Below, piece after piece: positions 6,087 through 36,423 of a DNA stretch of 64,000 bases (its first letter is position 1; each line of letters opens with the position of its first letter). Both the position numbers and the translations under genes were made by a program. Source of the DNA: Desulfosudaceae bacterium (GTDB lineage Bacteria; Desulfobacterota; Desulfobacteria; Desulfobacterales; Desulfosudaceae); the NCBI GenBank assembly GCA_963674745.2, contig CAXXDV010000001.1:2080001-2144000 (forward strand), in the 5' to 3' direction. The notes under the pieces were generated by a model. The model was not told the origin of the DNA, searched no databases, and saw nothing but the letters and a program-made list of their open reading frames with translations.

Positions 6087-6136
6087 ACCCTCGACCCCTT
6101 GGCCCCTTGAACCCTTATTAAGGTTAGGAACTGAAA

Positions 6137-20021: not shown

Positions 20022-20147
20022 ATCCAACGTCTGAAGCCAATGGCAGCCAGGGCTTCCACCGACTTCCTTAAAGATGTTTGTTGTTCAATTCTCGTGGTTG
20101 TACAACAAAGCCCGCTCGGGCTGTTTTTTTTGGCTGACTTGTTAGCC
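20022..20147 (-). other. attC 2 (family A, degenerate arms)
   Basis: CCAACGTCTGAAGCCAATGGCAGCCAGGGC..GTTAGCC. Confidence 0.8.
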
Positions 20148-20498
20148 CCTGTTTTTTCCAGAGGGGGCTACGGATTTTCGTAAAACACTAATACAGAAAT
20201 TATTAAGGCTGTCTCCGGACTGTAATGCCTTTATTGCTAAAGCCTTGTGAAGATCACTTCCCGTACGCAATTGAAACTTGCCAGAATATCGTTTATCGCT
20301 CGTGGAGGGTGGTAAAGGCCGGCCGTCTTTTTTATAAGTGACGATCCATTCATCAACTATACGGCAGAGTTGACGATAAACTTTTTCTTCGTTGTCTCCG
20401 TGGCAACACTTACCGATCCATCCCGGCACAGAACCGACATAGCATTTATCTTCATCTGACCACTCAACAATTTTCAAATAACGATCTCTATCTTTCAT
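20142..20498 (-). CDS. hicB: HicB antitoxin
   Basis: IVEWSDEDKCYVG N-terminus, GRPLP, YSGKFQLR..LHKALA RHH domain. Confidence 0.88.
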   Translation of the reverse strand: MKDRDRYLKIVEWSDEDKCYVGSVPGWIGKCCHGDNEEKVYRQLCRIVDEWIVTYKKDGRPLPPSTSDKRYSGKFQLRTGSDLHKALAIKALQSGDSLNNFCISVLRKSVAPSGKNRG

Positions 20499-20689
20499 TA
20501 TTTGGCCTCCTCAATCTTCTGCTTGACAATTTTTTCCTGATAAGGCTTTGCATCATCACCAAGTTGACCTGAGACTGTGACAGCAACGCCTTTTTCATGT
20601 AAGAAATTTTGATGGCTACCTTTTCCGCCCCGATTAACAAAACCGGCATTCTCAAGGTCTTTGATTAGTTGACGAAGTTTTCTTGGCAT
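20498..20689 (-). CDS. hicA: HicA mRNA interferase toxin
   Basis: LENAGF..GKGSH..F.H, AKPYQ. Confidence 0.9.
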   Translation of the reverse strand: MPRKLRQLIKDLENAGFVNRGGKGSHQNFLHEKGVAVTVSGQLGDDAKPYQEKIVKQKIEEAK

Positions 20690-21224: not shown

Positions 21225-21346
21225 GTATAACGTCTTCAGCCAAAGGGCGCCAGGGCTTCCACTAACTTGCCTAAAATTAATTTATGTTCAATCCCCATGG
21301 TTGTTCGAAACCCGAGTGCCCTGGCTGTCCACTTGAGCTTCTTGGT
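21225..21346 (-). other. attC 3 (family A), interrupted in R'' by the group II intron; remainder at 22057-22061
   Basis: Rejoining gives GT|TATAAGG, complementary to CCTTATAAC at 22514-22522. Confidence 0.88.
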
Positions 21347-22056
21347 GTGTGCCGGGCACGGCACATGTTCTTAAAAGTGAGCCAAGGCTATCATATATTT
21401 GATAATTTTGGCAAGTCTTAGACCCAGCCTGATGGAGGCGAAGGGTGTAGCGGTAGTGCAACGGGGTACCGGTGACGGTGCTTCGGGAGGAAGCCGCCCT
21501 GCTGCGGCAGGGTACCGCGAAGGTACGGGATGACGCACAGGAATCGAGTATAAGGCGCGCACGCCGGGACGAGTCTGCACAACAAGGCAAAGTCCTCTAT
21601 CCATCTTAAGGCGTGTCCGTAAACTCGGCATTTACGTACCGAAAGACACGTGCTTACCCCGGGAGATCTCTCCTGTGCCGTACAACGGCTGAGGGTCGGG
21701 TAACCGGCCCTGACCGCAGGGGAGAAGTCAGCAGAAGGCATAGTAGCCGGCGGAAACGAGCCGGGCCTCCCTTAAGCGGGAGAAGTATACCCGGAGGACT
21801 CACCCCGGTGAAGGCCGGAACGGTGCCCGGACCGAATGGCACGGGTAAATGGTGGTGGCAAGTAAGGGAGTATCTCTTACGGGGATAATGCGGCAGCTGC
21901 CGAAATTCACGTAGCGAGCTTTCTCTGAAAACCCGGTGGAACTGGTGGGATAACTCACAGCCGGTCTCATCAGTACCAGCCGAACCGCCTTGGTACGTGA
22001 TCCGTATGCCAGGTGGTGTGGGAGGGGGTAGCCGTGAGGCTACTCCCTATCCCAAT
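21347..22056 (+). mobile_element. Group IIC-attC intron, ORF-less (710 nt)
   Basis: 5' GTGTG; 3' DV/DVI GAACCGCC..GTACGTGATCCGTATGCCAGGTGGTGTGGGAGG..CCCTATCCCAAT; inserted in attC antisense to the cassettes; no RT ORF. Confidence 0.88.
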
Positions 22057-22512: not shown

Positions 22513-22515
22513 ACC

Positions 22516-22638
22516 TTATAACGTCTCAAGCCAATGGAAACCAGGGCTTCCACCAGCTTGGTTAAAGATTATGGTTGTTCAGTTCCCCTAATTTTTCAAA
22601 ACCAGAGTGCCCTGGTTGTCCACTTGAGCTTGATTGTT
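22516..22638 (-). other. attC 4 (family A), separated from its cassette by the recombinase/IS91 element
   Basis: TCAAGCCAATGGAAACCAGGGC..GCCCTGGTTGTCCACTTGAGCTTGA..GTT. Confidence 0.88.
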
Positions 22639-22729
22639 GAACGAAGCCGCTACGCGGCGGATTAATAAAAAACAAGGTATACTCCAATACGTGCTCAATT
22701 ACGGGCACCCCCAATAAAAGGAGTATACC

Positions 22730-23634
22730 ATGAACGATTCGGAAGTAAAACGTTTCAACCGGCTTTATGAGCGGCACCTGGAGTTGCTCAAGCTTCAGGG
22801 GATGAGTCCGAGGACCATTGATCTCTATGCCCGTTCAGTCCGCCGCATTCGTAACCATTTTGATTGTTGTCCCGACCATTTACGTCCGGAACAATTGGAA
22901 GGTTATTTCTCTCAGCTGGTGGATAGCCATTCCTGGAGCACGGTCAGGGTTGACCGTAACGGCTTGCAGTTCTTCTGGCGGTATGTGCTCGGAAAGGACT
23001 GGGAATGGATCAAGATCGTCAAACCGCCGAAAGTCAAAACCATACCGGACATTCTTACCGTTTCCGAAGTTGAACGGATCATCGGCAAAACCAAGAAATT
23101 GCGTTACCGGGTATTTCTGCTGACAACCTATTCCATGGGATTGCGTCTGGAAGAGACGTTGTCCCTTCAGATCGGGGACATTGATGCTGAACGCAAAAAG
23201 GTCCATATCCGCCGGGGTAAAGGTCATAAGGACCGAATGCTGCCATTGCCGGATCTTACGTTGGAGGGCCTGCGGGAGCTTTGGCGTAAGCATCGTCATC
23301 CTAATTTGTTATTCCCCAATTGCAAGGGTTCTTTAGAAACCATCCGGGCGGCCACCAACTTTATGGATAAAGGCGGCTGTCAGAGGGCCATGAAAGTGGT
23401 CGTCGCCGAATGCGGCATTAAAAAAAAGTATCCATTCACTCCCTGCGTCACAGTTTTGCCACCCACCTGCTTGAACGCGGCTTAAGCCTCCGTCACATCC
23501 AGGCCCTGCTTGGCCATGCCAGTCCCTCCACAACAGCACGTTATACGCATCTAAGCGATATAACGGAGCAGGACAGCCTGACTGTCTTAAATGAGTTGAT
23601 AAATACAATCCATGTTGATTTTAGAAAGGTATGA
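22730..23634 (+). CDS. Tyrosine recombinase, complete only via a -1 frameshift at A8G (23420-23428)
   Basis: 0 frame: SAM-like N-terminus, [10 protein letters not shown]. -1 frame: [26 protein letters not shown], stop overlapping the tnp ATG (ATGA). Confidence 0.85.
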
Positions 23635-24686
23635 TTATGGAACTGGCATCAATTATTGATCAGTACGCTGACAGGTTTATGGAAAAGCACGGCCAAAAAG
23701 CCTTGCCGGGGCATCTTAAAGCCTTGCGTGCCATACGCAGGTGCCGCACTCCTGCCTCCGGAGAATTTCACGTTCAGTGCCCCGGCTGCCAACATGGACA
23801 ATGGAAACCAATGTCCTGCGGGCACCGGAGCTGCCCCAAATGCCAGAATCATGAGGCCAGTCAGTGGATCGACCGGCAGCAGGAGAAACTGCTTCCGGTG
23901 CTTTACTTTATGGCGACGTTTACGCTGCCGTTTGAACTCCGTCCGCTGGCCTGGAACAATCAGCGGGATGTATATTCAATCTTCTTTTCCTGCGTGTCCG
24001 AAACACTCAAGGATTTTGGCTTAAACCCGAAGCAAATGGGCGCAGAAATCGGTTTGACCATGGTTCTGCATACGAACACCCGAAGTCTGGATTATCATCC
24101 TCATATCCATGTGGTGGTGCCCGGCGGCGGGATTGATAAGCGCCGGCGACAATGGAAAAAGAAAAAAGGAAAATATCTGTTTAATGAGTTTAACCTGGCC
24201 ACGGTCTTTCGTGCCCGTTTTCTGGCCGCTTTAAGAAAAGCCGGCCTTTATGTGCCTAAAAATACACCTGCAAAATGGGTCGTGGATTGTGAAAAGGTCG
24301 GTAACGGGCTCCCGGTCATAAAGTACCTGTCCCGGTACTTATACCGGGGTGTAATCAGTGAAAAGAATATTGTGGCCAATGAAAATGGCCGGGTCACCTT
24401 CAGGTACACTGAAAGCGGCACCGGCCATACCCGTTATCGTACGCTTGACGGAGAAGATTTTCTCCAGCTCATTCTGCAGCATGTCCTGCCCAAGGGCTTC
24501 CGCAGGGTGCGCGATTACGGGTTTCTTCATGGCAACGCCAAAAAGACGCTGCAACTGGTGCAATTGATCCTGCATGTCCGGCTTGGAATAAAAACCCAAC
24601 GCCCGAGACCTGCTGTAAAGTGCCCCCGTTGCCACATCCCGATGGTCATCAAAGGGTTCCGTTACGCGGCCTGGAAGCCGGGATAA
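23631..24686 (+). CDS. IS91-family rolling-circle transposase
   Basis: Zn-binding [26 protein letters not shown]2 motif [17 protein letters not shown]. Confidence 0.95.
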
Positions 24687-24880
24687 AACGCTGACCCGGT
24701 TATGACCCGGCACAACAAAAAACAGGAGGCAATCACACCCATGAACAAAATTGTCTTTTTAAAACCTGCCTTCAGGTTAAGGGATCCCTGCGTCCTGCAA
24801 AAAAAGCACTTTCCAGGTTCACGCCTTTTGCCCTCTATCCCAAATTAAATATTTTCTTATAGTGAAAGTTCAGCGGGCTT

Positions 24881-24941
24881 GTTCAACCCCGGATAAGATC
24901 GTGGCTCGTTACCTCGCACGATCTATCCTTGTTCGTTATGA
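24881..24941 (+). other. Short attC-like hairpin, inverted relative to the array
   Basis: GTTCAAC-ccc-GGATAaGATCGTG-13 nt-CACGATCTATCC-ttgttc-GTT; extra base on the left arm; spacing not canonical. Confidence 0.6.
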
Positions 24942-25069
24942 TTACCCCTTTCGCTACACAGAAAAAACCATGCGATATCAAAAAATTACACGCTTACAAA
25001 ATTTTGTTTAAAAGAATAAATTAAAAAGATTTTGTTATTGGAACAAAATTGCATTATCAGCGAATTTTA

Positions 25070-25285
25070 CTAAATGTTTTCCCAAATGTCATATCCAATA
25101 AAAATTATTATTAGAACACAAAACAAAAGAATTATAATTTTTCTTCTTCGTAGACATTTCGGGCATCGATAAACATATTTATATCTTTCTGTCAGCGACC
25201 AATGATTAAGCACAAGCTCAACATCTTTTTCAGATACTTCAATTCCGCAGGAGGCACATTTCATGTCATTTTTTGCTTTAATCAT
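25070..25285 (-). CDS. Cassette: small CxxC..CxxC protein with C-terminal TM helix, copy A
   Basis: CASC..CPKC, hydrophobic tail; ATG lies within the R' box. Confidence 0.7.
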   Translation of the reverse strand: MIKAKNDMKCASCGIEVSEKDVELVLNHWSLTERYKYVYRCPKCLRRRKIIILLFCVLIIIFIGYDIWENI

Positions 25286-25409
25286 AACGTCTTCAGCCAA
25301 AGGGCGCCAGGGCTTCCTCTGACTGACTTAAAGTCGGTTGATGTTCAATTTCCCGAGGATGTTCAAAACCCGAGTGCCCTGGCGATCCTTTTGCGCTGAA
25401 TTGTTGAGT
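25282..25409 (-). other. attC 5 (family A)
   Basis: TTCAGCCAAAGGGCGCCAGGGC..GCCCTGGCGATCCTTTTGCGCTGAA; 3 extrahelical bases. Confidence 0.9.
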
Positions 25410-25416
25410 GTAAATT

Positions 25417-25782
25417 TTATTTGTTTGGTTCTATAAAATCATCAACTTCAATATGAATATCCCGGCAACCAAGGAATTCCTCATCTACTTCGTATATATT
25501 TAATATACCACCATATTCAGCAGTGAGTTCACCATCCCAAAAGATAGCTTGAATTTCGATTAACACGTGATCTCCGACATGGATTGTTTCTTTTTCCTGA
25601 TTAACTATTACATCTTCGTTATGATAATCATTATCTTCTACAGCATAGTATATACTTACTTCTCTGTCTGTATCATTGAAAACTCTTACGCAAAAATTTT
25701 GCGGGTCATCAAAATCGAACGGATCAGTGCAGCCAAACATTATCAAAAAAATAACCGGTACTAATTTAATGAAAATATTCAC
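25417..25782 (-). CDS. Cassette: acidic hypothetical lipoprotein
   Basis: MFGC lipobox-like leader. Confidence 0.72.
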   Translation of the reverse strand: MNIFIKLVPVIFLIMFGCTDPFDFDDPQNFCVRVFNDTDREVSIYYAVEDNDYHNEDVIVNQEKETIHVGDHVLIEIQAIFWDGELTAEYGGILNIYEVDEEFLGCRDIHIEVDDFIEPNK

Positions 25783-25787
25783 TCTAC

Positions 25788-25913
25788 ACTCAACGTCTCC
25801 AGCCAGAGGGCGCCAGGGATTCCACTGACTGTCTTAAAGTTGGTGAATGTTAAATCCCCCCGGTTGTCCAACAAAGCCCGCCCTGGCGGTCCTGCTGGGC
25901 TGGATTGTTATGA
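25788..25913 (-). other. attC 6 (family A)
   Basis: Family A arms; AAC..GTT ends. Confidence 0.9.
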
Positions 25914-25929
25914 TTTAGGATATTATTTT

Positions 25930-26275
25930 TCAATCCACCCATTCAACTTTTACTTTAGTTCCTCTAAGACCTTCAAAAAACCCGCCGACTAAGGCCCATG
26001 CGGTTTTTTGGTTCCCTTGTCTTGTTTTAACTTTTATCCAAAAAATTCGTTGTCTCCAAACAAGTTTAAAAAAAAATGGATTCATTTTTAATCTTGGATA
26101 TTTGAAGTCTATTAAAGCATATCCATTATTACTTGCCCAGATTTCGAGTATTTTTTTACCCTTTTTCGAGTTATAATAATGTTCAAATATAAACAATATA
26201 AGGAGAATAGATATCGGAACATTACATAATGATAGTAATATTAAAAGATCATTGTTCATATGCAGAAAAATCATA
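25930..26275 (-). CDS. Cassette: hypothetical membrane protein
   Basis: N-terminal TM helix; start trimmed to the ATG inside the cassette. Confidence 0.7.
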
Positions 26276-26396
26276 ACGGCGGCAGCCAAAGCAGCCAGGG
26301 CTTCCACTGCCTTTATTAAAGTTGTTTGCTGCTCAATTCCCCCGGCATGTTCAAAAACCGAATGCCCTGGCTGTCATTTGGGCTGCTTGGTTAAGT
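26271..26396 (-). other. attC 7 (family A)
   Basis: GCAGCCAAAGCAGCCAGGGC..GCCCTGGCTGTCATTTGGGCTGC. Confidence 0.9.
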
Positions 26397-26680
26397 GCCC
26401 GCATTATTCAGAAAGCCTTTAACGACAGCATGGGCAAATCAATTAAAATGATTTTTTTCTTTTTACGCCTTGTCCATCATGAACTTATGAAAACGGGTAG
26501 GTCTCTTTTCATCCGGACAAATAAAGGCGCAAAATCAAACAGTCCCGCCAGATCAAAATACAGCTTATCTTTACTGATTGAAAATATCAATCTGGTGACA
26601 ATTTCCATAGTGGCAACGAAGATCATTTTTCGTCAAAATTCTTTTTTTATTTTTTCCCGTACAGATTAAGTGCACTTAAC
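26390..26680 (-). other. ORF-less cassette, family 1, copy 1
   Basis: GTTAAGTG..CACTTAAC bounds; homologous to 31833-32126 and 32843-33134; no - strand ORF. Confidence 0.85.
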
Positions 26681-26797
26681 GTCCGCCACCACCGGCGAGC
26701 AGGGTTTGCGGACTTCCTTAAAGTGAGTTTAACACCAAACTATGCCAGGACAAAAGCAGCCCGCCCCTGCGAGTCCGGGTGAGTGGCATTGTTATCT
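26674..26797 (-). other. attC 8 (family B)
   Basis: CCGCCACCACCGGCGAGCAGGG..CCCTGCGAGTCCGGGTGAGTGGC. Confidence 0.9.
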
Positions 26798-26798
26798 T

Positions 26799-27287
26799 TC
26801 AGTTTTTTAATATTTTTGATTCTATTAATTCATTTTTTAAAATCATAAAAATTCCTGCTACTACCGTAAAACCATGTGCAAATGAATTACTCCAATAGAA
26901 ACCTCCTCCCGAGCGAATTGGTAAAAGGAATAAATCTCTGATTAAGGAGGACGTTCCACTTGTGAAAAAGTATATGCCTAAAAGAATAAGCCAAAAGGAT
27001 AGATTAGAGTAATTGGGGTCGCTTTCATCTGTCTTGGGTGTTACTTTAGAATCTCCGGAAATAAAATTTGATATTTTTTCGGCCTTCGAAATTAAGAGGA
27101 TTGCAACAATAATATAAAATATCGGGAGAAAAGAAGCCCAAATATTATATAGCACAGGATTCTTGATAAACTTTTCCTGATTGATAGCAAATGAAGAGAT
27201 TAATCCAGAAAATGCATATGGTATTTGAACTAAAAGATAAAGGCCGTAAATACGTGTTGCAATTTCAATGGCTTTTTTTGTGCTCAT
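26799..27287 (-). CDS. Cassette: 4-TM hypothetical membrane protein
   Basis: Four hydrophobic segments; GAAGGA before MSTKK. Confidence 0.75.
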   Translation of the reverse strand: MSTKKAIEIATRIYGLYLLVQIPYAFSGLISSFAINQEKFIKNPVLYNIWASFLPIFYIIVAILLISKAEKISNFISGDSKVTPKTDESDPNYSNLSFWLILLGIYFFTSGTSSLIRDLFLLPIRSGGGFYWSNSFAHGFTVVAGIFMILKNELIESKILKN

Positions 27288-27303
27288 AGAGTTCCTTGAA
27301 GAA

Positions 27304-27432
27304 AGATAACGGCGGCCGCCAATGGGAGCCAGGGCTTCCACTGACTTGCCTTAAAATTGGTTGCTATTCAACTTCCCCCGAATGTTCAAACCCCGGGGTG
27401 CCCTGGCTATCCTTTGCGCGGCCTTGTTATGA
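27304..27432 (-). other. attC 9 (family A)
   Basis: GGCCGCCAATGGGAGCCAGGGC..GCCCTGGCTATCCTTTGCGCGGCC. Confidence 0.9.
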
Positions 27433-27560
27433 TTACCCCTTTCGCTACACAGAAAAAACCATGCGATATCAAAAAATTACACGCTTACAAAATTTTGTTT
27501 AAAAGAATAAATTAAAAAGATTTTGTTATTGGAACAAAATTGCATTATCAGTGAATTTTA

Positions 27561-27776
27561 CTAAATGTTTTCCCAAATGTCATATCCAATAAAAATTATT
27601 ATTAGAACACAAAACAAAAGAATTATAATTTTTCTTCTTCGTAGACATTTCGGGCATCGATAAACATATTTATATCTTTCTGTCAGCGACCAATGATTAA
27701 GCACAAGCTCAACATCTTTTTCAGATACTTCAATTCCGCAGGAGGCACATTTCATGTCATTTTTTGCTTTAATCAT
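27561..27776 (-). CDS. Cassette: small CxxC..CxxC TM protein, copy B
   Basis: The 354-bp body (27426-27779) is nearly identical to 24935-25288. Confidence 0.7.
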   Translation of the reverse strand: MIKAKNDMKCASCGIEVSEKDVELVLNHWSLTERYKYVYRCPKCLRRRKIIILLFCVLIIIFIGYDIWENI

Positions 27777-27901
27777 AACGGCGGCAGCCAAAGGGCGCCA
27801 GGGCCTTCTCTGACAGCCTTTAAGAAGGTTACTGTTCAGTTTTCTTCGAATGTTCCAAAACCCGAGTGCCCTGGCGATCCTCTTGCGCTGCCTGGTTAGT
27901 T
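27773..27901 (-). other. attC 10 (family A)
   Basis: Family A arms. Confidence 0.9.
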
Positions 27902-28281
27902 TTCTTTTTATTTCTTATGGTTAGAATCATTTTATATAAATCCTCCATCTGCTCACCTGCCCATGGATACATACGATAATTTTTTGATCTGGGTAATATG
28001 CTATTGGCTATGTCGAAGCAATTGCAACTATCGATGTCAATTTGAAAATTCATTATGACCATTGATTTGGTTTTATTATCATAAATTTTGAGATCGGCCC
28101 ATGAACGGGGCCATTCACTGTTTCTCTCTACATAGAATGTTGTTTGTTTAATAACATCGGCAGTTTTATATTCTGGGTCGACGTTGAAAATTATTGCAGA
28201 AAAATGGCCAAACAAATAGGCAACAAAGATTGATAAAATCCATAAAACAAAAATCAAAATTTTTTTCTTTTTGCCTGTCAT
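27829..28281 (-). CDS. Cassette: membrane-anchored hypothetical protein; stop lies inside attC
   Basis: MTGKKKK followed by a TM helix. Confidence 0.7.
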   Translation of the reverse strand: MTGKKKKILIFVLWILSIFVAYLFGHFSAIIFNVDPEYKTADVIKQTTFYVERNSEWPRSWADLKIYDNKTKSMVIMNFQIDIDSCNCFDIANSILPRSKNYRMYPWAGEQMEDLYKMILTIRNKKKTNQAAQEDRQGTRVLEHSKKTEQ

Positions 28282-28301
28282 TTCGAGCTTGCTCTCATGA
28301 A

Positions 28302-28429
28302 AACTAACGTCTTCAGCCAAAGGGCGCCAGGGCTGTCTCTGACTGACTTAAAGTCTGTTGATGTTCAATTCAGCACGGCTGTTCAAAAGCCGAATGCCCT
28401 GGCGATCCTATTGCGCTGAATTGTTCGGT
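28302..28429 (-). other. attC 11 (family A)
   Basis: Family A arms. Confidence 0.9.
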
Positions 28430-28896
28430 GCCTTAAGGGTTTCTATAGATTCCAGCAATTCTTTTATAAATTGATCAAAATTATTCTTGTTTGAGCCGTT
28501 ATTACCGATATTAAAAGCTATTAAACCATTATCCATTTTGAATTGATAGAATTCTATTTTCCCCCAATTGATAATTGCAAGGATTGCGCATAGTAGAGGT
28601 ATAAATAAGAAGAACATATGTGCTAAAAAGGGGAGCCCTCCGCCTTCAAAATAAAAAATAAGTTCGGCAAACAAAGCAATTGGTAAAGACCCAACAAATA
28701 TGCCTGCCGAATATTTAAAGGTTTCAGTTCTGATCCAAACCTTATCATATATGGGGTCAATCTTCTTGAGGTCTAATTTGGCTTCAGATTTTTCACCCCA
28801 AGATCGTTTGCTCTTAAAAATTAGAAAATCATCGTTTATTTCAAAGTCTCTAACAGTTCCATTGAAACGATGTGAGTATTTTTTGATTTTGTTCAT
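28408..28896 (-). CDS. Cassette: 2-TM hypothetical protein
   Basis: Fills the cassette; two central hydrophobic segments. Confidence 0.72.
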   Translation of the reverse strand: MNKIKKYSHRFNGTVRDFEINDDFLIFKSKRSWGEKSEAKLDLKKIDPIYDKVWIRTETFKYSAGIFVGSLPIALFAELIFYFEGGGLPFLAHMFFLFIPLLCAILAIINWGKIEFYQFKMDNGLIAFNIGNNGSNKNNFDQFIKELLESIETLKAPNNSAQ

Positions 28897-28907
28897 AATA
28901 ATTGTGC

Positions 28908-29031
28908 ACCGAACGTCCGCCACCACCGGCGAGCAGGGTTTGCGGACTTTTTAAGGGTTAGTTCAACACCACACTATGCTAAAAATAAGGCAGGCCGCCC
29001 CTGCGAGTCTGTGTGAGTGGCGTTGTTATGT
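28908..29031 (-). other. attC 12 (family B)
   Basis: Family B arms. Confidence 0.9.
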
Positions 29032-29039
29032 GCCTCTAA

Positions 29040-29378
29040 TCATTCGTATTTCTTATATGCACGCCAATGTGTATCACAATTCAAGCATTTGCTATGGAAA
29101 ACGCCTAAATATCTCCAACTAAAACCGAACAATTCTCCACAGACAGGACAAGTACTGTATTTACTTGCAAGGCTGGAAATGAACAGCGCTACAAGATATG
29201 GCAAAAAAAATATAGCCATGATTATTCCAAAGTAGAATCCATTGAAAAGGATATCGCTAAATAATGCCACAATAATAAAATACGGGAATGTGCAACCAGC
29301 AAGAATCCAGTTGGTTTTTCTCGCAAGCCTAATTTTTCGTAGTTCCTTTGCAATTTTTCTATTGTCTTCTTCACCCAT
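29040..29378 (-). CDS. Cassette: 2-TM protein with C-terminal zinc ribbon
   Basis: CPVCG..CLNC. Confidence 0.72.
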   Translation of the reverse strand: MGEEDNRKIAKELRKIRLARKTNWILAGCTFPYFIIVALFSDILFNGFYFGIIMAIFFLPYLVALFISSLASKYSTCPVCGELFGFSWRYLGVFHSKCLNCDTHWRAYKKYE

Positions 29379-29389
29379 TATTCTTTGGC

Positions 29390-29517
29390 ACATAACGTCG
29401 GCCGCCAATGGGAGCCAGGGCTTCCACTTACTTGCCTTAAAGGTTATTAAAGTTCGTTTTTCCCCGAGTTTTCAAAAACCGAATGCCCTGGCTATCCTTT
29501 GCGCGGCCTGGTTAAGT
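29390..29517 (-). other. attC 13 (family A)
   Basis: Family A arms. Confidence 0.9.
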
Positions 29518-29527
29518 GTCTTAAATA

Positions 29528-29848
29528 TTAATACAATTCGAATAAAACCAAACTGACAATAAATACGTGAACTATCCCAACGCCGAATACAGAATAAAGG
29601 CTGATCTTAAAATTATGTTGGCAAAGCATTCCACATAAAAAATAACAAAATGAAGAGACCAACCAAAAGGCCCAGAAAAATATTATATTATACAGGCGAT
29701 CTAAGGTTACGCCACGAGCACCATTTTCATAAAGTCCATAGTGTATGAGAAATTGTATACCTCCGACAATAATGCCTGAAGCCAACAAAAATAAACTGCA
29801 GGTGATTAATGCTCTTTTACAATATAGGGTTATTTTATCTCCAGCCAT
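29528..29848 (-). CDS. Cassette: 3-TM hypothetical protein
   Basis: Hydrophobic ORF filling the cassette. Confidence 0.68.
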   Translation of the reverse strand: MAGDKITLYCKRALITCSLFLLASGIIVGGIQFLIHYGLYENGARGVTLDRLYNIIFFWAFWLVSSFCYFLCGMLCQHNFKISLYSVFGVGIVHVFIVSLVLFELY

Positions 29849-29856
29849 TATTTTAC

Positions 29857-29985
29857 ACTTAACGCTCTGGTTCACCGGGCGGGCGGCGAACCACGAAAAC
29901 CGCCGAAAGGCGAAAAAGGTTGAAAAATAGCACCACTCAAAAGTGCGGCGCTGTAGCCCGATCCGTGTGCAACCAGTTGTTATCT
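29857..29985 (-). other. attC 14 (singleton)
   Basis: CTGGTTCACCGGGCGGGC..GCCCGATCCGTGTGCAACCAG. Confidence 0.85.
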
Positions 29986-30426
29986 TTTAATTTTATATGT
30001 TTGTAAAACATTTTTACATTCTAAAATTAAACCTGACAAATAGCTTTGGTCGATCTCGAATATAAATTCATGGTTTTGCAAAAGATGATCAGGCGTAAGG
30101 CTAACTTTCATTTCCATTTGACCAAGCTTATTTGCTTCTATACTCATGTACAATTCAGGTTCCATACATGAAAGCTCGGCTTTACCTGAAAGAGTTTGAT
30201 AAAGTTTTTCTGTAGATTCAAGCAATTGGTTTATTTCGGACAAATGGAGTATGTTGCCGGACACCCAAACATAAGATTGTTTTGACTCACATTTAGCCGT
30301 AATATTTACCCAATTCCCATCCCAAAAATCTTTTGAATCTGGAAACTGTCGTCTGTGTATCCATATTTCCAATCCAGCTATTTTAATGTCTGGTTTTTCT
30401 AAATCTTTTGGGAAATCTTTCATCAT
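29980..30426 (-). CDS. Cassette: WapI-like immunity-family protein
   Basis: QFPDSKDFWDGNW..EPEL..IDQSYL pattern recalled from WapI-like proteins. Confidence 0.6.
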   Translation of the reverse strand: MMKDFPKDLEKPDIKIAGLEIWIHRRQFPDSKDFWDGNWVNITAKCESKQSYVWVSGNILHLSEINQLLESTEKLYQTLSGKAELSCMEPELYMSIEANKLGQMEMKVSLTPDHLLQNHEFIFEIDQSYLSGLILECKNVLQTYKIKR

Positions 30427-30434
30427 ATTCTTAA

Positions 30435-30558
30435 AGATAACGTCCGCCACCACCGGCGCGCAGGGTTTGCGGACTTCGCTAAAGTAAGTTAAACACCAAA
30501 TTACGCCAAAACAAAGGCCGCCCGCCCCTGCGAGTCCGGGTGAGTGGCGTTGTTATAT
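30435..30558 (-). other. attC 15 (family B)
   Basis: Family B arms. Confidence 0.9.
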
Positions 30559-30843
30559 TCCAGTTTTTATTTTTATGAAAATAATTGCTGCCAGCAGCCC
30601 TATCATAGCACCAAAAATTATCGACAAATACCATTTTGAAATATTCGTGAATTTTATAATTAGTGCCGGAAAGATCGAAATCAGGATTATTTTGAATAGA
30701 CCTGAAATTAAATAAGGCCAATCCATAAAACCGTAATGCTTGAGCATAGTCAAAAAGAAAATGGAAAATAAACAAATTGTGCTTGCAAAATAAGCAAGTA
30801 ATGCTTGTTTTGAATGAGCTAAAAATTTGCTTTGATCATCCAT
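30553..30843 (-). CDS. Cassette: 3-TM hypothetical protein
   Basis: Hydrophobic; stop codon in the R'' box. Confidence 0.7.
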   Translation of the reverse strand: MDDQSKFLAHSKQALLAYFASTICLFSIFFLTMLKHYGFMDWPYLISGLFKIILISIFPALIIKFTNISKWYLSIIFGAMIGLLAAIIFIKIKTGI

Positions 30844-30860
30844 AAATTTTCTCTTGTGGA

Positions 30861-30986
30861 ATATAACGTCCACGGTGTGAGGCCGCAAGGGGAACAGGCC
30901 ACCCGCAGAAAACTCGTTTATAAAAATAATTGGTAAGAGCCAAAACCGACCGCCCCTTGCGGTCCTTTACCAACGTGTTGTTATGC
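30861..30986 (-). other. attC 16 (singleton)
   Basis: CACG..GGCCGCAAGGGG..CCCCTTGCGGTCC..CGTG. Confidence 0.85.
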
Positions 30987-30988
30987 AA

Positions 30989-31279
30989 CTATCTATAATT
31001 TCGAATTTTTTTGCGTTGCGCTGTATATTTCCACCATTCCTTTGGTTCTCCACCATTCATAAAATCCGTTATAGAAAGAAAAACATCAATCACGCAGGGG
31101 TCATGCTTCTGACCAGTAACTCTACATAGATCATCATACATCGTATAAGCAGATTTACCCTTCAATTTTTCGGGCTTGTCTATATTTATTCGTTTTAAAT
31201 CCTTGGCGATAGCTTTTCCTATGTTTGGAAGATCTGTTAACTCGATGACATTGTCGCGTTTTACTTTGTTTGGATTCAT
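30989..31279 (-). CDS. Cassette: helix-hairpin-helix protein (Cdd1/mitomycin-resistance-like family)
   Basis: LTDLPNIGKAIA HhH, HDPCVIDVF, WWKYT. Confidence 0.8.
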   Translation of the reverse strand: MNPNKVKRDNVIELTDLPNIGKAIAKDLKRINIDKPEKLKGKSAYTMYDDLCRVTGQKHDPCVIDVFLSITDFMNGGEPKEWWKYTAQRKKIRNYR

Positions 31280-31289
31280 ATGAAAAGTT

Positions 31290-31413
31290 GCATAACGCCC
31301 GCCACCACCGGCGAGCAGGGTTTGCGGACTTCTCTAAAGTGAGTTCAACTCCAAATTACGCCACAACAAAAGCCGCGCGTCCCTGCGAGTCCGTGTGGGT
31401 GGCGTTGTTATCT
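31290..31413 (-). other. attC 17 (family B)
   Basis: Family B arms. Confidence 0.9.
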
Positions 31414-31653
31414 CTAAATGTTATGCTTTTTTTTAACTTCTGAGATTCTATCCCAAACTGCTTTTGAAACTGAATCTTGGGATACTTGATCGAAAATGTT
31501 ATTTAGTACCCGTTTTTCATCATCATCAATAATATTATCGGCCATTGCTAATCCAAGCAGATAATTGATTTCTCCAATATCCAGCGTACCATCATCAGTG
31601 AAACATTTAATAGAGTCGAGGGCAATTCTTAAATGACTTTCAAGTGGTGACAT
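31414..31653 (-). CDS. Cassette: small acidic protein, TerB-like motifs
   Basis: DDGTLDIGE and ADNIIDDDE repeats; GAAAGG RBS. Confidence 0.65.
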   Translation of the reverse strand: MSPLESHLRIALDSIKCFTDDGTLDIGEINYLLGLAMADNIIDDDEKRVLNNIFDQVSQDSVSKAVWDRISEVKKKHNI

Positions 31654-31713
31654 TTGATTGTACCTTTCTCTCCAAGAGGGTTGTCGGTTAAAGCGCACTT
31701 AATATTATAAGAG

Positions 31714-31839
31714 AGATAACGTCTGCAGCCAAAGTAGCCAGGGCTTCCAGTGACTGACTTTAAGGTGGTTGATGTTCAATTTCCCCCGAATGTTCAAAAA
31801 CCGAATGCCCTGGCTATCATTTGGGCTGCTTGGTTAAGT
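31714..31839 (-). other. attC 18 (family A)
   Basis: Near-identical to attC 20. Confidence 0.9.
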
Positions 31840-32126
31840 GCCCGCATTATTCAGAAAGACTTTAACGACAGCATGGGCAAATAAAATAAAATGATATTTT
31901 TCTTTTTACGCCTTGTCCATCATGAACTTATGAATACGGGTAGGTCTCTTTTCATCCGGACAAATAAAGCCGCATTATCATTTGGCCGCGCCAGTTCGAA
32001 ATTACAATTTACCTTTACTGGCCGAAAAATTCAACTTGGTGACAATTACCATTTTGGCAACGAATGTCGATTTCAGCCAAAATTCTTTTTTTTATTTTTT
32101 TCCCGTACAGAATCAGTGCACTTAAC
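31833..32126 (-). other. ORF-less cassette, family 1, copy 2 (more diverged)
   Basis: Homologous to copies 1 and 3. Confidence 0.85.
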
Positions 32127-32246
32127 GGCGGCAGCCAAAGCAGCCAGGGCTTCCACCGCCTTTATTAAAGTTGTTTGCTATTTAAGTCCCCCGGCTGTTC
32201 AGAAACGCGCCCGCCCTGGCTGTCGTTTTGCGCTGCCTTGTTGGGA
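32120..32246 (-). other. attC 19 (family A)
   Basis: Family A arms. Confidence 0.9.
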
Positions 32247-32719
32247 AATCTCCTTTTTAAACCAATTCGAATGCATACGACCAAGAGGTATGCAACCCCA
32301 AAAACGAATATGAGCCATGCAAACTGGAGCCCGACGATAGTCCACATGCCAACTCCGGGGACGAGTGTCGCATTACTTGCGTTTGTAGGATCGTAGAAGA
32401 CGACAACATATTCGTCAATTTTGTACTTCCGAAAAATATCCTTGGCGTCCATGTCATCGCCAAAAGAACGCACGCTTGACACATAAGAGTGGCCATCGAT
32501 AGTGTAGCGGTAGGTGACGATTGGAGAGTTACTAATCGGCCTTCCTTGTGACGTCCGTTCATAATCAACACGAAGAATGGTTCCCTCAGTCTTAATCCAT
32601 GATTCGCTTGCTTGCGCCTTGTGTAGGTTCTCGTATTCCAGGCACAGCAGAACGCCGCCCAACGCGATAAAGAAAACCGCCAAGGCAACTGCACGCAATG
32701 CTGATGGTTGTTCCTTCAT
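32165..32719 (-). CDS. Cassette: DUF3592-like membrane protein; stop lies inside attC
   Basis: SW..TEGTI, YRYTIDG..Y, VFYDP.N between two TM helices. Confidence 0.78.
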   Translation of the reverse strand: MKEQPSALRAVALAVFFIALGGVLLCLEYENLHKAQASESWIKTEGTILRVDYERTSQGRPISNSPIVTYRYTIDGHSYVSSVRSFGDDMDAKDIFRKYKIDEYVVVFYDPTNASNATLVPGVGMWTIVGLQFAWLIFVFGVAYLLVVCIRIGLKRRFPNKAAQNDSQGGRVSEQPGDLNSKQL

Positions 32720-32723
32720 TCAT

Positions 32724-32849
32724 TCCCAACGTCTGCAGCCAAAGTAGCCAGGGCTTCCAGTGACTGACTTTAAGGTGGTTGATGTTCAATTTCCCCCGAA
32801 TGTTCAAAAGCCGAATGCCCTGGCTATCATTTGGGCTGCTTGGTTAAGT
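32724..32849 (-). other. attC 20 (family A)
   Basis: Near-identical to attC 18. Confidence 0.9.
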
Positions 32850-33134
32850 GCCCGCATAATTCTGAAAGACTTTAACGACAGCATGGGCAAATAAATGAAA
32901 ATGATATTTTTCTTTTTACGCCTTGTCCATCATGAACTTATGAAAACGGGCAGGTCTCTTTTCATCCGGACAAATATAGGCGCAAAATCAAACAGTCCCG
33001 CCAGATCAAAATACAGCTTATCTTTACTGATTAAAAATATCAATCTGGTGACAATTTCCATAGTGGCAACGAAGATCATTTTTCGTCAAAATTCTTTTTT
33101 TTATTTTTTCCCGTACAGATTAAGTGCACTTAAC
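32843..33134 (-). other. ORF-less cassette, family 1, copy 3
   Basis: Homologous to copies 1 and 2. Confidence 0.85.
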
Positions 33135-33251
33135 GTCCGCCACCACCGGCGAGCAGGGTTTGCGGACTTCGCTAAAGTGAGTTCAACTCCAAACTACGCC
33201 AAAACCAAAGCCGGCCGCCCCTGCGAGTCTGCGTGGGTGGTGTTGTTATAT
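33128..33251 (-). other. attC 21 (family B)
   Basis: Family B arms. Confidence 0.9.
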
Positions 33252-33686
33252 TTAAAAAAAATCTAATTGCGATATTACAGCCGCCAAAATAATTGCAATA
33301 ATAATTGCGCCTAATGCAAGTGCCAAAAACTGGAAGGCTATTGCCCCGCCTCCAAGAACTGCGGCCCCTCCGGCAACTCTGAGAGATTCGTTTTTAATAA
33401 AAGCCACAACTGCAATGATAATCGCTATGCCACCCAAGAGCGCTGTGATCACATCAATTATTTTGTCTGCATCCCATTTCGACGACCATTTTTCTTCTTT
33501 CACTTCTTTACCTTTGAGGGCAGCAACTGTCGCATCTCTTATGGCAACTGCTTTTTCAGCAATGGTTTGCTCTAACTTCGGCTGTGGTGCGAAAGGTCCT
33601 GCGTAAAAATGGAATAAAGCCAACAGCAAAGCAATTGACCCGATAATAACACCGATAATTCCGATCTTTGATTTCTCTTCGTCCAT
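33252..33686 (-). CDS. Cassette: inner-membrane protein (YidI-like)
   Basis: GPFAPQP.LEQ.IAEKA followed by hydrophobic helices. Confidence 0.7.
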   Translation of the reverse strand: MDEEKSKIGIIGVIIGSIALLLALFHFYAGPFAPQPKLEQTIAEKAVAIRDATVAALKGKEVKEEKWSSKWDADKIIDVITALLGGIAIIIAVVAFIKNESLRVAGGAAVLGGGAIAFQFLALALGAIIIAIILAAVISQLDFF

Positions 33687-33699
33687 TGTTGTCCCTAAA

Positions 33700-33826
33700 A
33701 TATAACGTCTGAAGCCAATGGCAGCCAGGGCTTCCACTAACTTGGTTAAGGATTTTGGTTGTTCAACTTCCCCGGCTGTTCAAAACCCGGGTGCCCTGGC
33801 TGTCCACTTGAGCTTCGTTGTTATGT
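33700..33826 (-). other. attC 22 (family A)
   Basis: GAAGCCAATGGCAGCCAGGGC..GCCCTGGCTGTCCACTTGAGCTTC. Confidence 0.9.
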
Positions 33827-33831
33827 CAAAA

Positions 33832-34446
33832 TCATTTATTTGTTTTTTCGGTCTCTTCAATATTTTCTGGTTTAACTTTAATATTCATAATTCGGTTCAT
33901 TTCTTTTGCAATTTTCTTGTCTTGACGTTTATGTTTGTTCGCTTTTAATTTGTCGTTAACATAATCGCGAATGACGTCCAAAATTCTCCACGCCTTTGCA
34001 CCGTCTAAGGGTTCGATTGGCATAAGATTAAATAGAATCATCCATAGGTTTGCACCTATGAAAGCATGATAGATTTGGAAAGTATATATATTCGTTGGGG
34101 GGCCGAAAATCATGATCGCAATTTGTGCGAGAGCCATTAAAACCAATTGTGCAAGTATGCCACCCCAAGATATGATGGTTTCTTGCATTTCAGTAGCTTC
34201 GCCGGCCCATCTGCAATACCCGCCAATGCCCTGAAGAACAATTTCTTCAACCCAGAAACCGAATTTTCGTATTATGATTGCATGACCAAATTCATGAGCT
34301 ATAACTAAGAAGAGAAAAGCAATCCAGAAGATTGGCATAAAATCGAGCCTGCCAAATAAAAATGCACATAGGATTACTGTCCAATGTATCCTAATCGGGG
34401 CATCGTTCCATTCGCCAATTATTAAAGAGTCTTTTGTAAGTTCCAT
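33832..34446 (-). CDS. Cassette: site-2 protease (peptidase M50)
   Basis: HEFGH and FNLMPIEPLDG motifs. Confidence 0.88.
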   Translation of the reverse strand: MELTKDSLIIGEWNDAPIRIHWTVILCAFLFGRLDFMPIFWIAFLFLVIAHEFGHAIIIRKFGFWVEEIVLQGIGGYCRWAGEATEMQETIISWGGILAQLVLMALAQIAIMIFGPPTNIYTFQIYHAFIGANLWMILFNLMPIEPLDGAKAWRILDVIRDYVNDKLKANKHKRQDKKIAKEMNRIMNIKVKPENIEETEKTNK

Positions 34447-34459
34447 GTTTTCTGTAGTG

Positions 34460-34584
34460 ACATAACGTCCGCCACCACCGGCGAGCAGGGATTGCGGACT
34501 TCGCTAAAGTGAGTTTTAACTCCGAATTATGCCAAAACCAAGGCCGCGCGCCCCTGCGAGTCCGGGTGAGTGGCATTGTTATCT
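34460..34584 (-). other. attC 23 (family B)
   Basis: Family B arms. Confidence 0.9.
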
Positions 34585-34923
34585 GTTTATTATTTTTCCT
34601 GTTTGCCCATCAATTTTAACGCCAAGGCTCGCCGAGGATGAATTTGACCCCCAAAAAGCATCATGAACATAATAATACCTTGAGTCAGCATAAAGATGCC
34701 AAACATGTTTCATTGAAAGCATCGGAGGTTTTTTGTGTAGTACAATCATATATGCCTCCTCAGGTGTAATTTTAAAACCATTTGGTGGTTCAATATTTTC
34801 AGTTGGAAAGTTTTTCTCAGTCCAAACCGGATAAATATCATCGTAGTAGGAGCAAATGGACGATAAGCACCCAGTTCCAAACAGTAAAACTAATAAAAAA
34901 AATAATATTCTATATTTCTTCAT
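34579..34923 (-). CDS. Cassette: hypothetical lipoprotein
   Basis: MKK, hydrophobic leader, GTGC. Confidence 0.72.
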   Translation of the reverse strand: MKKYRILFFLLVLLFGTGCLSSICSYYDDIYPVWTEKNFPTENIEPPNGFKITPEEAYMIVLHKKPPMLSMKHVWHLYADSRYYYVHDAFWGSNSSSASLGVKIDGQTGKIINR

Positions 34924-34927
34924 ATAC

Positions 34928-35052
34928 AGATAACGGCGGCAGCCAAAGTAGCCAGGGCTTTCTCCGACTGCCTTAAAGATGGTTAATGTTCAATTTTCCC
35001 CGAATTTTCGAACCCGAGTGCCCTGGCTGTCATTTGGGCTGCTTGGTTGTGC
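34928..35052 (-). other. attC 24 (family A)
   Basis: Family A arms. Confidence 0.9.
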
Positions 35053-35326
35053 GAAAATATATTTTATAGTGATTCACAAAAATTTGCAGGGCTTTTCGTT
35101 ACAAAGTTTTGCAAAAAAGTACAGAAACCGTTTTTCATCTTTTCCGGATTGACTGGCGAATTCAAAAAATCCATTTTCCGGCTGATCAGAAACGCATGAT
35201 CTGATCGATGCCGGTGGTTCATTCGCAAAGATGAAAAATATATCTTTTTTCCCCTTTGTTTCAAATTCATCCTGCCAAAAATTATCGAGTAGCTCGATTT
35301 TCCAAAAAGCGTTTTATACGCACAAC
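35046..35326 (-). other. Probable ORF-less cassette, family 2
   Basis: GTTGTGCG..CGCACAAC bounds; only a weak 68-codon ORF. Confidence 0.6.
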
Positions 35327-35447
35327 GCCTTCAGCCAAAGGGCGCCAGGGCTTTCTCTGACTGACTTAAAGATGGATAATGTTCAATTCAGCACGGCTGT
35401 TCAAAATCCTAATGCCCTGGCGATCCTTTTGCGCTGAATTGTTATCC
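35320..35447 (-). other. attC 25 (family A)
   Basis: Family A arms. Confidence 0.9.
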
Positions 35448-35873
35448 CTTCATTTGTTTATATAAATTATTATCCCATGGGTGTCCCCAAGGCCCATCTA
35501 CTTTTATTGCTTTCGAATACCCGTATTTTTGTCCCTTGATGATCATTGAAAAGGGTTCGTCATCAAGAAGTGCTAATGGGGATGCACCATCATTATGCCA
35601 TAGGACTTCTAATTGGCGATTGGCTATGTCAGAGATGACTGCACTTTCATGCGAATATCCAGAAACGAGGGGAGGGGCGCCTTGGCCATTATAAAGTTTT
35701 TTAAATTCTGATAATTCCATTAACTCCTGTAGGCTGCAAATTGGAGATGTTGCAATAACTTGCTTCTCTTGAATGTCATGAAGATACATCCAAACAGTTC
35801 TTTCGTCGCTTTCAATAATACAGTAATAATTACCATCGGGACTGTACGATTCTATGTAAATTTTTTCATTCAT
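35442..35873 (-). CDS. Cassette: hypothetical soluble protein
   Basis: Fills the cassette; stop codon in R''. Confidence 0.75.
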   Translation of the reverse strand: MNEKIYIESYSPDGNYYCIIESDERTVWMYLHDIQEKQVIATSPICSLQELMELSEFKKLYNGQGAPPLVSGYSHESAVISDIANRQLEVLWHNDGASPLALLDDEPFSMIIKGQKYGYSKAIKVDGPWGHPWDNNLYKQMKG

Positions 35874-35880
35874 TGTGTAG

Positions 35881-36008
35881 GGATAACGTCTTCAGCCAGA
35901 GGGCGCCAGGGCTTACTCCGACTGACTTATAGATGGTTTATGTTCAATTCAGCACAGCTGTTCAAAACCCGAGTGCCCTGGCGATCCTACTGGGCTGAAT
36001 TGTTCGAC
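35881..36008 (-). other. attC 26 (family A)
   Basis: Family A arms. Confidence 0.9.
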
Positions 36009-36017
36009 CAGAAAAAT

Positions 36018-36278: not shown

Positions 36279-36293
36279 TGTTTATTCTTGTAG

Positions 36294-36423
36294 GTCGAAC
36301 GTCTTCAGCCAAAGGGCGCCAGGGCTTACTCTGACTGATTTAAAAGTCGATTAATATTCAACTCAGCACGGCTGATCAAAAACCCGAATGCCCTGGCGAT
36401 CCTCTTGCGCTGAATTGTTCTGC
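36294..36423 (-). other. attC 27 (family A, first cassette)
   Basis: R'' GTTCTGC matches GCAGAAC at attI. Confidence 0.9.

Follow-up and report, generated by a model that had tools for sequence, protein, structure and literature searches.

The 64,000-nt stretch analyzed here (the window; positions 2,080,001 to 2,144,000 of contig CAXXDV010000001.1 from the Desulfosudaceae bacterium assembly GCA_963674745.2) contains an integron cassette array with its own integrase gene, intI, at 37116-38447 on the + strand (TIGR02249, 415.7 bits against a cut-off of 265). One attC site of this array is split in its R'' box by a 2.3-kb element with two genes, one for a tyrosine recombinase and one, tnpA, for a transposase of the IS91 family. 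We consider it likely that this element is a recombinase-carrying member of the IS91 family that is specialized on integron attC sites. The features of the element and of the site that it occupies are collected in Table 1.

Counting one GTT, the element is 2,299 nt long and can be placed at 22636-24934 or at 22639-24937 (body 22639-24934); because the GTT triplet is common to target and element, the exact cut is not placeable inside it. The left boundary reads ..gagcttgatt-GTT-GAACGAAGCC.. and the right boundary ..CTATCCTTGTTC-GTT-atgatt.., the sequence from the left GTT (22636) onward being GTT GAACGAAGCCGCTACGCGGCGG and that up to the right GTT (24935) being CACGATCTATCC TTGTTC GTT atgattacc. 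An earlier reading of the bare letters (the sequence-only reading) had placed a 2.3-kb unit between two GTT triplets at an attC R'' box; the site and the start were exact, whereas the end it gave, 24941, is too far by 4-7 nt. Since the cassette open reading frames (ORFs) run on the - strand, the attC bottom strand is the + strand, which puts the insertion in R'', directly after AATCATAAC when the - strand is read. The R'' complementarity proposed in the sequence-only reading is present, as the pair of AATCATAAC (25280-25288) with GTTATGATT (24935-24943). The interrupted attC scores -16.1 kcal/mol over a span of 119 nt in the attC scan described below, like the 22 neighboring attC sites of the window, which are evenly spaced from 25403 to 36417. 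An uninterrupted paralogous cassette (27428-27791) has a single GTT at R'' and is equivalent to an empty site; the GTT is likewise single in a natural junction of joined ends (locus L064) and in an empty attC of aadA1, both described below.

Table 1. Features of the element and of the attC site that it interrupts (window coordinates).
Feature	Position	Strand	Remarks
Interrupted attC body, bottom strand	22514..22635	+	R' box CCTTATAAC, AAC 22520-22522, to spacer ..GCTTGATT
Left GTT	22636..22638	+	Triplet common to target and element
Left end, terIS-like by analogy	22636..22658	+	Tip box GTTGAAC-G-AAGCC; hairpin GCCGC-TAC-GCGGC 22646-22658
Tyrosine recombinase, zero frame, 251 aa	22730..23485	+	N-terminal SAM-like domain and first part of catalytic domain
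Slippery heptamer A_AAA_AAG	23422..23428	+	In phase, within A8 run (23420-23427)
Recombinase -1 frame, catalytic C-terminus	23428..23634	+	PF00589 positions 130-169; LLGHAS, ARYTHL; TGA 23632-23634
tnpA, IS91-family Y2 HUH transposase	23631..24686	+	ATG 23631 overlaps recombinase stop; relatives start at ATG 23637
Subterminal box GGGCTTGTTCAAC	24875..24887	+	Pairs with left tip after end joining
Subterminal hairpin GGATA-A-GATCGTG / loop / CACGATC-TATCC	24891..24928	+	Conserved bulged base (A)
Right tip, TTGTTC then right GTT	24929..24937	+	Right GTT 24935-24937
Rest of split R'' box (GTT + ATGATT) and start of cassette body	24938..24946	+	Identical to 27431 onward in paralogue

Four copies of the element occur in the genome, at 1.73, 2.10, and 2.27 Mb on contig C1 and at 2.33 Mb on contig C3, with 97-100% identity and the same ends, each in a different array. 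All four are inserted precisely at the GTT/AAC of R'', the sense strand of the element continuous with the attC bottom strand, and the element is therefore inverted relative to the cassettes. In the whole genome, a hidden Markov model (HMM) built from the attC sites of the window finds 243 attC sites, against 180,764 GTT and 15,149 TTGTT sites, and the probability of finding four of four copies in attC by chance is ~3e-12 on the GTT count and 7e-8 if only TTGTT sites are counted. Insertion into attC in this genome is repeated, exact in position, and specific in orientation.

A filled and an empty site could be compared directly in a relative on the E. coli IncC plasmid NZ_LT985243.1, where it has aadA1 of a class 1 integron on one side and qacEdelta1 on the other (L226). 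The transposase of this relative is 44% identical, its recombinase is annotated as a single in-frame gene, and it too runs opposite to the cassettes. The two junctions of this relative are ..ggcttgaacgaatt GTT GAACGAAGCC.. and ..CTATCC TTATTT GTT agacattatttgcc, and another plasmid (L230) has the uninterrupted site ..ggcttgaacgaatt GTT agacattatttgcc, from which it follows that the insertion is exact at the GTT of R'', a few bases downstream of the stop codon of aadA1. A near-identity match to this relative is found in only one other plasmid record, a 252-nt fragment in Shewanella, and there is no match in the E. coli genome set.

Among the 8,000 scored, more than 7,900 relatives of the transposase are found at E below 1e-20; among the best 120 listed, 118 are 72-83% identical, most of them on contigs of ~2-3 kb. 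Both ends of the element are strongly conserved across 62 loci on genome contigs, the left tip is kept in 38 related loci, and the ends are kept in relatives down to 44-46% transposase identity; in a Herpetosiphon relative at 35% identity, the end motifs searched for were not found. The consensus of the left end is GTTGRACGAAGCCGC(loop)GCGGC, and that of the right end is GGGCTTGTYCAAC, 2-5 nt, GGATAAGATCGTG, loop, CACGATCTATCC, TTRTTC, GTT. The stretch 24888-24934, whose membership in the element the sequence-only reading had treated as decisive, belongs to it in every copy.

The left flanks of the relatives were examined with a home-made attC scan that looks for AAC, up to 8 nt, a helix, up to 8 nt, and GTT, the duplex having to reach -8 kcal/mol or better. 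The genome set comprised 28 left flanks after the circular or tandem L064, the divergent-tip L094, and left ends with <100 nt of flank had been dropped; the metagenome set came from a pattern scan of contigs that gave at least 123 left ends, of which 92 were listed with a terminal hairpin and no less than 100 nt of flanking sequence; and 1500 GTT sites from the same loci served as controls, a conservative comparison since they come from cassette-rich DNA. The scan passes 12 of 28 genome-contig flanks (p 1e-7) and 46 of the 92 metagenome flanks listed (p 1e-26; 52/116 among the left ends listed before filtering), as compared to 98 of 1500 controls. The flanks of the relatives are enriched in attC-like sites; about half of them fail the scan, which also misses sites that look like attC by eye. 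A left-flank pattern, T at -11, A at -8, C at -6, and TT at -2/-1, is found in sites failing the scan as well. After the right GTT, 34 distinct flanks agree with the R-box consensus: A (21), G/T (31), G (21), Y (27). Of the 46 attC-like flanks, 33 have their unpaired bases mainly on the 3' arm, 6 have them mainly on the 5' arm, and 7 show an equal division, the corresponding numbers for the window's own attC sites being 24, 4, and 1 for bottom strands and 2, 22, and 1 for top strands. Three other measures were tried and set aside: plain minimum free energy folding of rebuilt empty sites together with constrained AAC-GTT energies discriminated poorly (3/28 vs. 21/400 controls at 5%), a gapped inverted-repeat alignment score was too harsh, and a 'hairpin within 12 nt' measure was noisy (46/92 sites vs. 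94/600 controls at -10 kcal/mol).

When the two ends of the element are joined they have the layout of a folded attC, namely a 7-bp box of the RYYYAAC/GTTRRRY type, an unpaired spacer, and an inner helix with a bulge. The ends themselves are unlike each other: the left has one hairpin ~10 nt from the tip, whereas the right has a box and a hairpin 6-9 nt from the tip. All parts of the joined structure proposed in the sequence-only reading are present: CCC separates the GGGCTTGTTCAAC box from the inner hairpin, which has a bulged A, and TTGTTC leads from the hairpin to the GTTGAAC-G-AAGCC box of the left tip. The fold has R-type boxes, spacers of 3 and 6 nt, and one bulged base. On the antisense strand, the right end of the family reads AAC-GAAYAA-hairpin and the left end hairpin-TTC-GTYC-AAC (hairpin-TTC-GTTC-AAC in the window's copy); joined, this strand has a 5' box GTYCAAC with the joint, a 6-nt spacer, a helix bulged on its 3' arm, and a 3' box GTTGRAC. 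A natural junction was found in locus L064, a contig of 2,453 nt whose two termini share the same 141 nt exactly, as expected of a 2,312-nt circle or a head-to-tail tandem. The junction reads TTAATC-GTT-GGAC, with a single GTT, and folds as the predicted long, imperfect hairpin on both strands (z -5.6 and -6.3; 0 of 200 shuffles as good).

Compensatory changes in both helices bear out the further proposal that the ends covary to keep the junction hairpin. In the inner helix there are at least five clean double changes among 32 distinct right ends (GATTGTG/CACAATC, GATCATG/CATGATC, GGTTGCG/CGCAACC, GATCGCG/CGCGATC, and AATCGTG/CACGATT), with the bulged base kept. The outer box covaries with the left tip as GTTGAAC/GTTCAAC, GTTGGAC/GTCCAAC, and GTTGTAC/GTACAAC, the last in a 46% identical relative (L084), and its variable pair in 30 complete elements is A/T in 21, A/C in 6, G/C in 2, T/A in 1, and G/T in none. 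The A/C cases are mismatches on the sense strand and T-G wobbles on the antisense strand, as are two cases in the inner helix (L043 and L065). As these mismatches are wobbles only on the antisense strand, they hint that it is this strand which folds, the strand that forms the functional circle in IS91 (PMC13181058); the hint is weak, since there are only a few such events and these are related.

The recombinase, 301 residues at full length, matches PF13495 and PF00589 of Pfam. Its scores are below the cut-offs for XerA (154 vs. 220 bits), XerD (147 vs. 330 bits), and the IntI profile TIGR02249 (144.5 vs. 265 bits, in two stretches), which does not place it among the integron integrases. It is 30% identical to the host IntI and has ~45 residues absent where the IntI-specific extra domain lies, the domain with which IntI reads extrahelical bases. 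The closest solved structures are Xer proteins and IntI4, and the enzyme is best described as a putative Xer-like recombinase in the same broad Xer/IntI group. TnpA has an N-terminal zinc-binding domain and the profile of the Y2 HUH family (PF14319, 95.9 bits; PF04986, 164.2 bits; NCBIfam NF033538, 389 bits vs. a cut-off of 125). Six of its columns are invariant in 25 sequences, and by our own reading H154, H156, and H158 would be the HUH histidines, and Y230, Y234, and Y236 the tyrosine motif. Judged from its genes and ends, the element is an intact, active-looking IS91-family insertion sequence of the recombinase-carrying subgroup.

How the element reaches attC can be considered by homology to IS91. 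TnpA would release the antisense strand as a single-stranded circle in which the left end (a hairpin with GTYC, terIS-like) is joined to the oriIS-like right end; the folded junction would be matched with a folded attC, one strand would be exchanged at or beside the AAC, and replication would then fix the insertion. On the target side, the partner is the top strand of attC, at RYYYAAC of R''. In such a scheme the recombinase would supply the specificity for hairpins (attC) that canonical IS91 elements lack. As to which enzyme cuts and joins the target, we give nearly even weight to the recombinase, by a single-strand exchange like that of IntI and Xer; it is quite possible, if somewhat short of even, that TnpA cuts after the RYYY(AAC) word with the recombinase acting as a targeting or regulatory factor, and it is improbable that something else does.

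The explanation that gives the recombinase the larger part, which follows the sequence-only reading and which we consider plausible though short of even, is that the HUH transposase only makes the single-stranded circle and that the recombinase swaps a single strand between the folded junction and a folded attC at the AAC beside the spacer. Folded, the junction is laid out like the core site of a recombinase, with a 7-bp box followed by a 6-nt spacer and by another box that has a bulged base; the cut point is at the boundary of box and spacer, and the catalytic residues of the recombinase, which are encoded in the -1 frame, are kept across the family. Moreover, the recombinase gene and attC targeting co-occur in this subgroup, and for IS91, IS801, and IS1294 the searchable text of PMC13181058 reports only tetranucleotide targets. 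To be set against this are that TnpA of IS91 inserts circles alone according to the same text (PMC13181058), that about half of the sites are not attC-like by our scan, that one relative (L056) is without the catalytic Tyr, and that the recombinase has no IntI-specific domain for reading extrahelical bases. It is unlikely, though worth stating, that the recombinase is a second hairpin-specific tyrosine recombinase besides IntI, swapping one strand between the junction and the folded top strand of attC. If it were, the element would combine a rolling-circle transposon with a recombination system of the integron kind and could split, freeze, reshuffle, or carry cassettes, with a bearing on the origin of attC sites and cassettes.

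A possible and only slightly less probable explanation is that TnpA acts alone, cutting single-stranded DNA after RYYY, which is GTYC at its own left end and the RYYY of R'' in the target, where the four bases beyond the insertion point on the antisense strand are indeed RYYY (G, C, C/A, T). The attC would then be favored as the word lies beside a hairpin resembling the right end of the element, and the recombinase would serve in regulation or help termination, as Orf121 does in IS91, or would resolve products. The antisense left end, hairpin-TTC-GTYC-AAC, agrees with this, as GTTC and GTCC are cleavage or target words of IS801, IS1294, and IS1294b in the searchable text of PMC13181058; so do the position of the recombinase gene in place of orf121, likewise overlapping the start of tnpA, and the sites that are not attC-like, which still bear the flank pattern and TT-GTT. 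Against it, the target pattern extends from about -11 to +4 and is longer than a tetranucleotide, and a catalytically complete recombinase is conserved. In addition, the recombinase-less IS91, IS801, and IS1294 are described with tetranucleotide targets and not attC in that text (PMC13181058), and no report of attC was found for recombinase-less IS91 elements in the searchable papers.

The full-length recombinase would be made only by a -1 shift at the A_AAA_AAG heptamer, either by ribosomal slippage or through an extra A added during transcription; the sequence-only reading had not noticed this split of the gene. The zero frame ends 19 codons past the slippery site, while after the shift the frame reads V-S-I-H-S-L-R-H.. 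and continues through the His-x-x-Arg, Gly-His, and Tyr motifs to a stop that overlaps ATG 23631 and precedes the tnpA ATG at 23637 by 2 nt. A -1 shift at the same A-run, which is A8G or A9, is needed in 43 of 49 copies, these being the four in this genome and 39 of 45 elsewhere; two copies have an in-frame recombinase (L056 and L084), and four are off by one further base in the A-run. In all relatives examined, the C-terminal -1 frame is conserved as protein, with silent or third-position changes. A conserved heptamer of the form X_XXY_YYZ in phase, followed by a frame apparently under selection, is what programmed -1 recoding would predict. Under such recoding the truncated protein would be common and the full-length recombinase rare, with translation of tnpA tied to the rare frame, so that both catalytic proteins would be kept rare. 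It is very improbable that the recombinase was instead broken by a one-base deletion and that the copies are relics of a decaying element; the early stop of the zero frame fits this, whereas the same heptamer with the same -1 need recurs in copies from many taxa, the downstream frame is kept as protein, and the element reached four arrays while bearing the shift. We found no description of this frameshift in the searchable papers.

The sequence-only reading had taken the element for a cassette, inserted by its own recombinase or the host IntI, and its joined ends do resemble an attC with RYYYAAC/GTTRRRY boxes. That it is an ordinary integron cassette moved by the host IntI is nevertheless highly improbable, because its place is R'' rather than R' or attI, its orientation is opposite to that of the array in four of four copies, it has two genes with their own expression signals, and about half of the sites of its relatives are not attC-like by the scan. 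It is an IS91-family insertion sequence instead, with ends organized like terIS and oriIS of IS801 and IS1294. The geometry rules out an ordinary IntI reaction: the antisense strand of the element is continuous with the attC top strand at R'' and not with the bottom strand at R', whereas the standard reaction of IntI (bottom strand, R') would give another position and polarity, which makes insertion by the host IntI unlikely. It is scarcely credible that a normal IS91-type element inserted at GTTC or CTTG words that happen to fall in attC, for although the attC L'' consensus GCTTGAAC and the right tip of the element contain CTTG and GTTC, all four copies are at the same attC base (p ~3e-12), the insertion point is the GTT of R'' and not one of these words, and relatives keep the same site and polarity. 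Insertion at random tetramers of this kind without conservation of the hairpin, one of the two outcomes by which the sequence-only reading would have fallen, is thereby excluded, and its proposal that the element targets attC stands on the four copies, the enrichment in relatives, and the exact comparison of filled and empty aadA1 sites.

Several observations weigh against an IS91-family element specialized on attC with a recoded recombinase. The first is that 46 of 92 metagenome and 16 of 28 genome-contig sites fail the attC scan, so that either a sequence word may account for part of the targeting or sites escape the scan, which is moreover home-made; the copies that it was applied to are not phylogenetically independent. 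No junction was found among the 116 metagenome left ends listed with usable flanks, nor was a circle junction or empty site for this host found in contigs of 4 of 22 public runs, where the contigs break at the element ends and short 'skip' joints with sides of 21-44 nt are not interpretable. With regard to the frameshift, L056, the only close relative with the recombinase in frame (1951-2856), has Cys at the position of the catalytic Tyr (ARCAHL vs. ARYTHL), and variation in length at the DNA level or assembly error contributes to the A-run differences in the four copies that are off by a further base. The relatives at 44-46% identity have an in-frame recombinase and no A-run, which makes the frameshift a feature of a clade and not essential to the design. 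Lastly, since TnpA of IS91 excises and inserts alone, a catalytic role of the recombinase is not required by precedent.

IS91-family members with an upstream ORF of the phage-integrase type are listed in ISfinder and in reviews. With the canonical IS91, IS801, IS1294, and IS1294b, the element shares a Y2 HUH enzyme with a zinc-binding N-terminus and two functionally different ends with subterminal palindromes and no simple terminal inverted repeats. It also shares with them a GTTC/GTCC word beside the left boundary on the antisense strand, the lack of an evident target duplication beyond the shared triplet, and perhaps circular junction forms, if L064 is a circle. According to the searchable text of PMC13181058, TnpA of IS91 alone inserts single-stranded circles, of which the bottom-strand one is functional, terIS of IS801 and IS1294 has one palindrome beside the GTTC cleavage word, and orf121 of IS91, a small upstream gene, overlaps the start of tnpA. 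The element differs from these in that a 301-residue tyrosine recombinase, whose gene needs a -1 frameshift, takes the place of orf121, in that its target is the R'' box of attC at the GTT/AAC and not a bare CTTG/GTTC word abutting oriIS, and in that its left tip pairs with a right subterminal box to form an attC-like fold. The two-gene layout is shared with the IS91 members that carry an integrase ORF. ISShvi3, an IS91-like element that we could compare by description only, directly adjoins an attC in a Shewanella integron, and the paper on it reports no IS that interrupts an attC and draws no targeting rule (PMC9229058). We found no description of attC targeting by IS91-type elements in the searchable papers.

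Two other kinds of element are known from attC sites. Group IIC-attC introns insert on the attC bottom strand at R'' (TTGT/T), opposite to the cassettes, and some also use non-attC hairpins, as described in the available text of PMC7923331; the element shares their target and orientation, whereas the introns are retroelements (a ribozyme and a reverse transcriptase) whose target is read by RNA-DNA pairing. The IS1111-attC group of the IS110 family, mentioned in the searchable text of PMC9229058, is similar in consisting of insertion sequences specialized on attC. The element differs from that group in having an HUH enzyme and a recombinase. IS1111-attC elements have a DEDD-type transposase and a different position in attC. 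Integron cassettes and IntI resemble the element and its joined ends in the folded single-stranded hairpin, the RYYYAAC/GTTRRRY boxes, the spacer, the extrahelical bases, and a crossover in AAC/GTT, but the recombinase of the element has no IntI-specific domain and scores below the IntI cut-off, and the element is at R'' with inverted polarity and carries a transposase. The frameshift has parallels in the programmed -1 frameshifting or transcriptional slippage of IS3 and IS1 transposases and of dnaX, with A_AAA_AAG or A9 in phase and short and long products that share an N-terminus, but here recoding would act on a tyrosine recombinase, whose shifted frame is coupled to another gene, that of the transposase.

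To our knowledge, integron cassette sites have two dedicated kinds of parasites, the IS1111-attC elements and the group IIC-attC introns, and the element would be a third, from a different enzyme family. Specialization on attC would also supply a role for the recombinase of an IS91 subgroup, which has lacked an explanation, and a frameshift coupled to the start of the transposase would be an uncommon control circuit for a tyrosine recombinase. As insertion separates R'' from the rest of the attC, it should block excision of that cassette. The four copies in four arrays on two contigs are substrates for rearrangement, and IS91-type elements can carry flanking DNA along. That a class 1 resistance integron of an E. 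coli plasmid already holds a relative indicates the clinical reach of such elements.

A number of additional observations were made in the relatives and in this genome. In L082, a 1.85-kb insert between tnpA and the right end (~4240-6100) has two ORFs, one with a match to DDE_Tnp_1 below the cut-off (21.3 bits), and looks like a nested insertion sequence. A single 1,183-nt metagenome contig (L178/L179) has two left ends ~1,070 nt apart with attC-like sequence before each, which suggests a shortened derivative or a truncated copy. A solo remnant at G000 C3:1912977-1913005 (L009 ~1500-1530, - strand) consists of the last 26 nt of the element (the 3' hairpin arm, TTGTTC, and GTT) followed by ATGC and lies outside any attC array found by the HMM. 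L039, the genome's fifth match to Y2_Tnp, is unrelated to the element; it is a truncated gene of the IS91 type next to a transposase of the Mutator family. Three integron integrase genes are above the cut-off, at C3:2348261, C1:2117407, and C3:27977, and the ~243 attC sites form at least eight clusters, the largest of 88 sites at C1:1.48-1.53 Mb and several without a nearby integrase.

In the window, 24938-25300 and 27431-27791 are near-identical small cassettes up to the AAC of R'', after which they have different attC bodies and downstream cassettes; exchange at R'' or recombination between element copies are possible causes. A group II intron without an ORF lies at 21340-22050 (+) in the R'' of the neighboring attC, where it shares the strand of the element and has practically the same insertion point, with the boundaries ..gagcttcttg / GTGTG.. 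and ..cccaa / ttataagg and Rfam matches to RF02001 (121 bits) and RF01998 (41.8 bits) at 21466-21653 and 21690-21767. The cassette to the left of this intron contains two small overlapping ORFs of 63 and 118 aa (20142-20689, -), the translations of which look like a HicA/HicB toxin-antitoxin pair.

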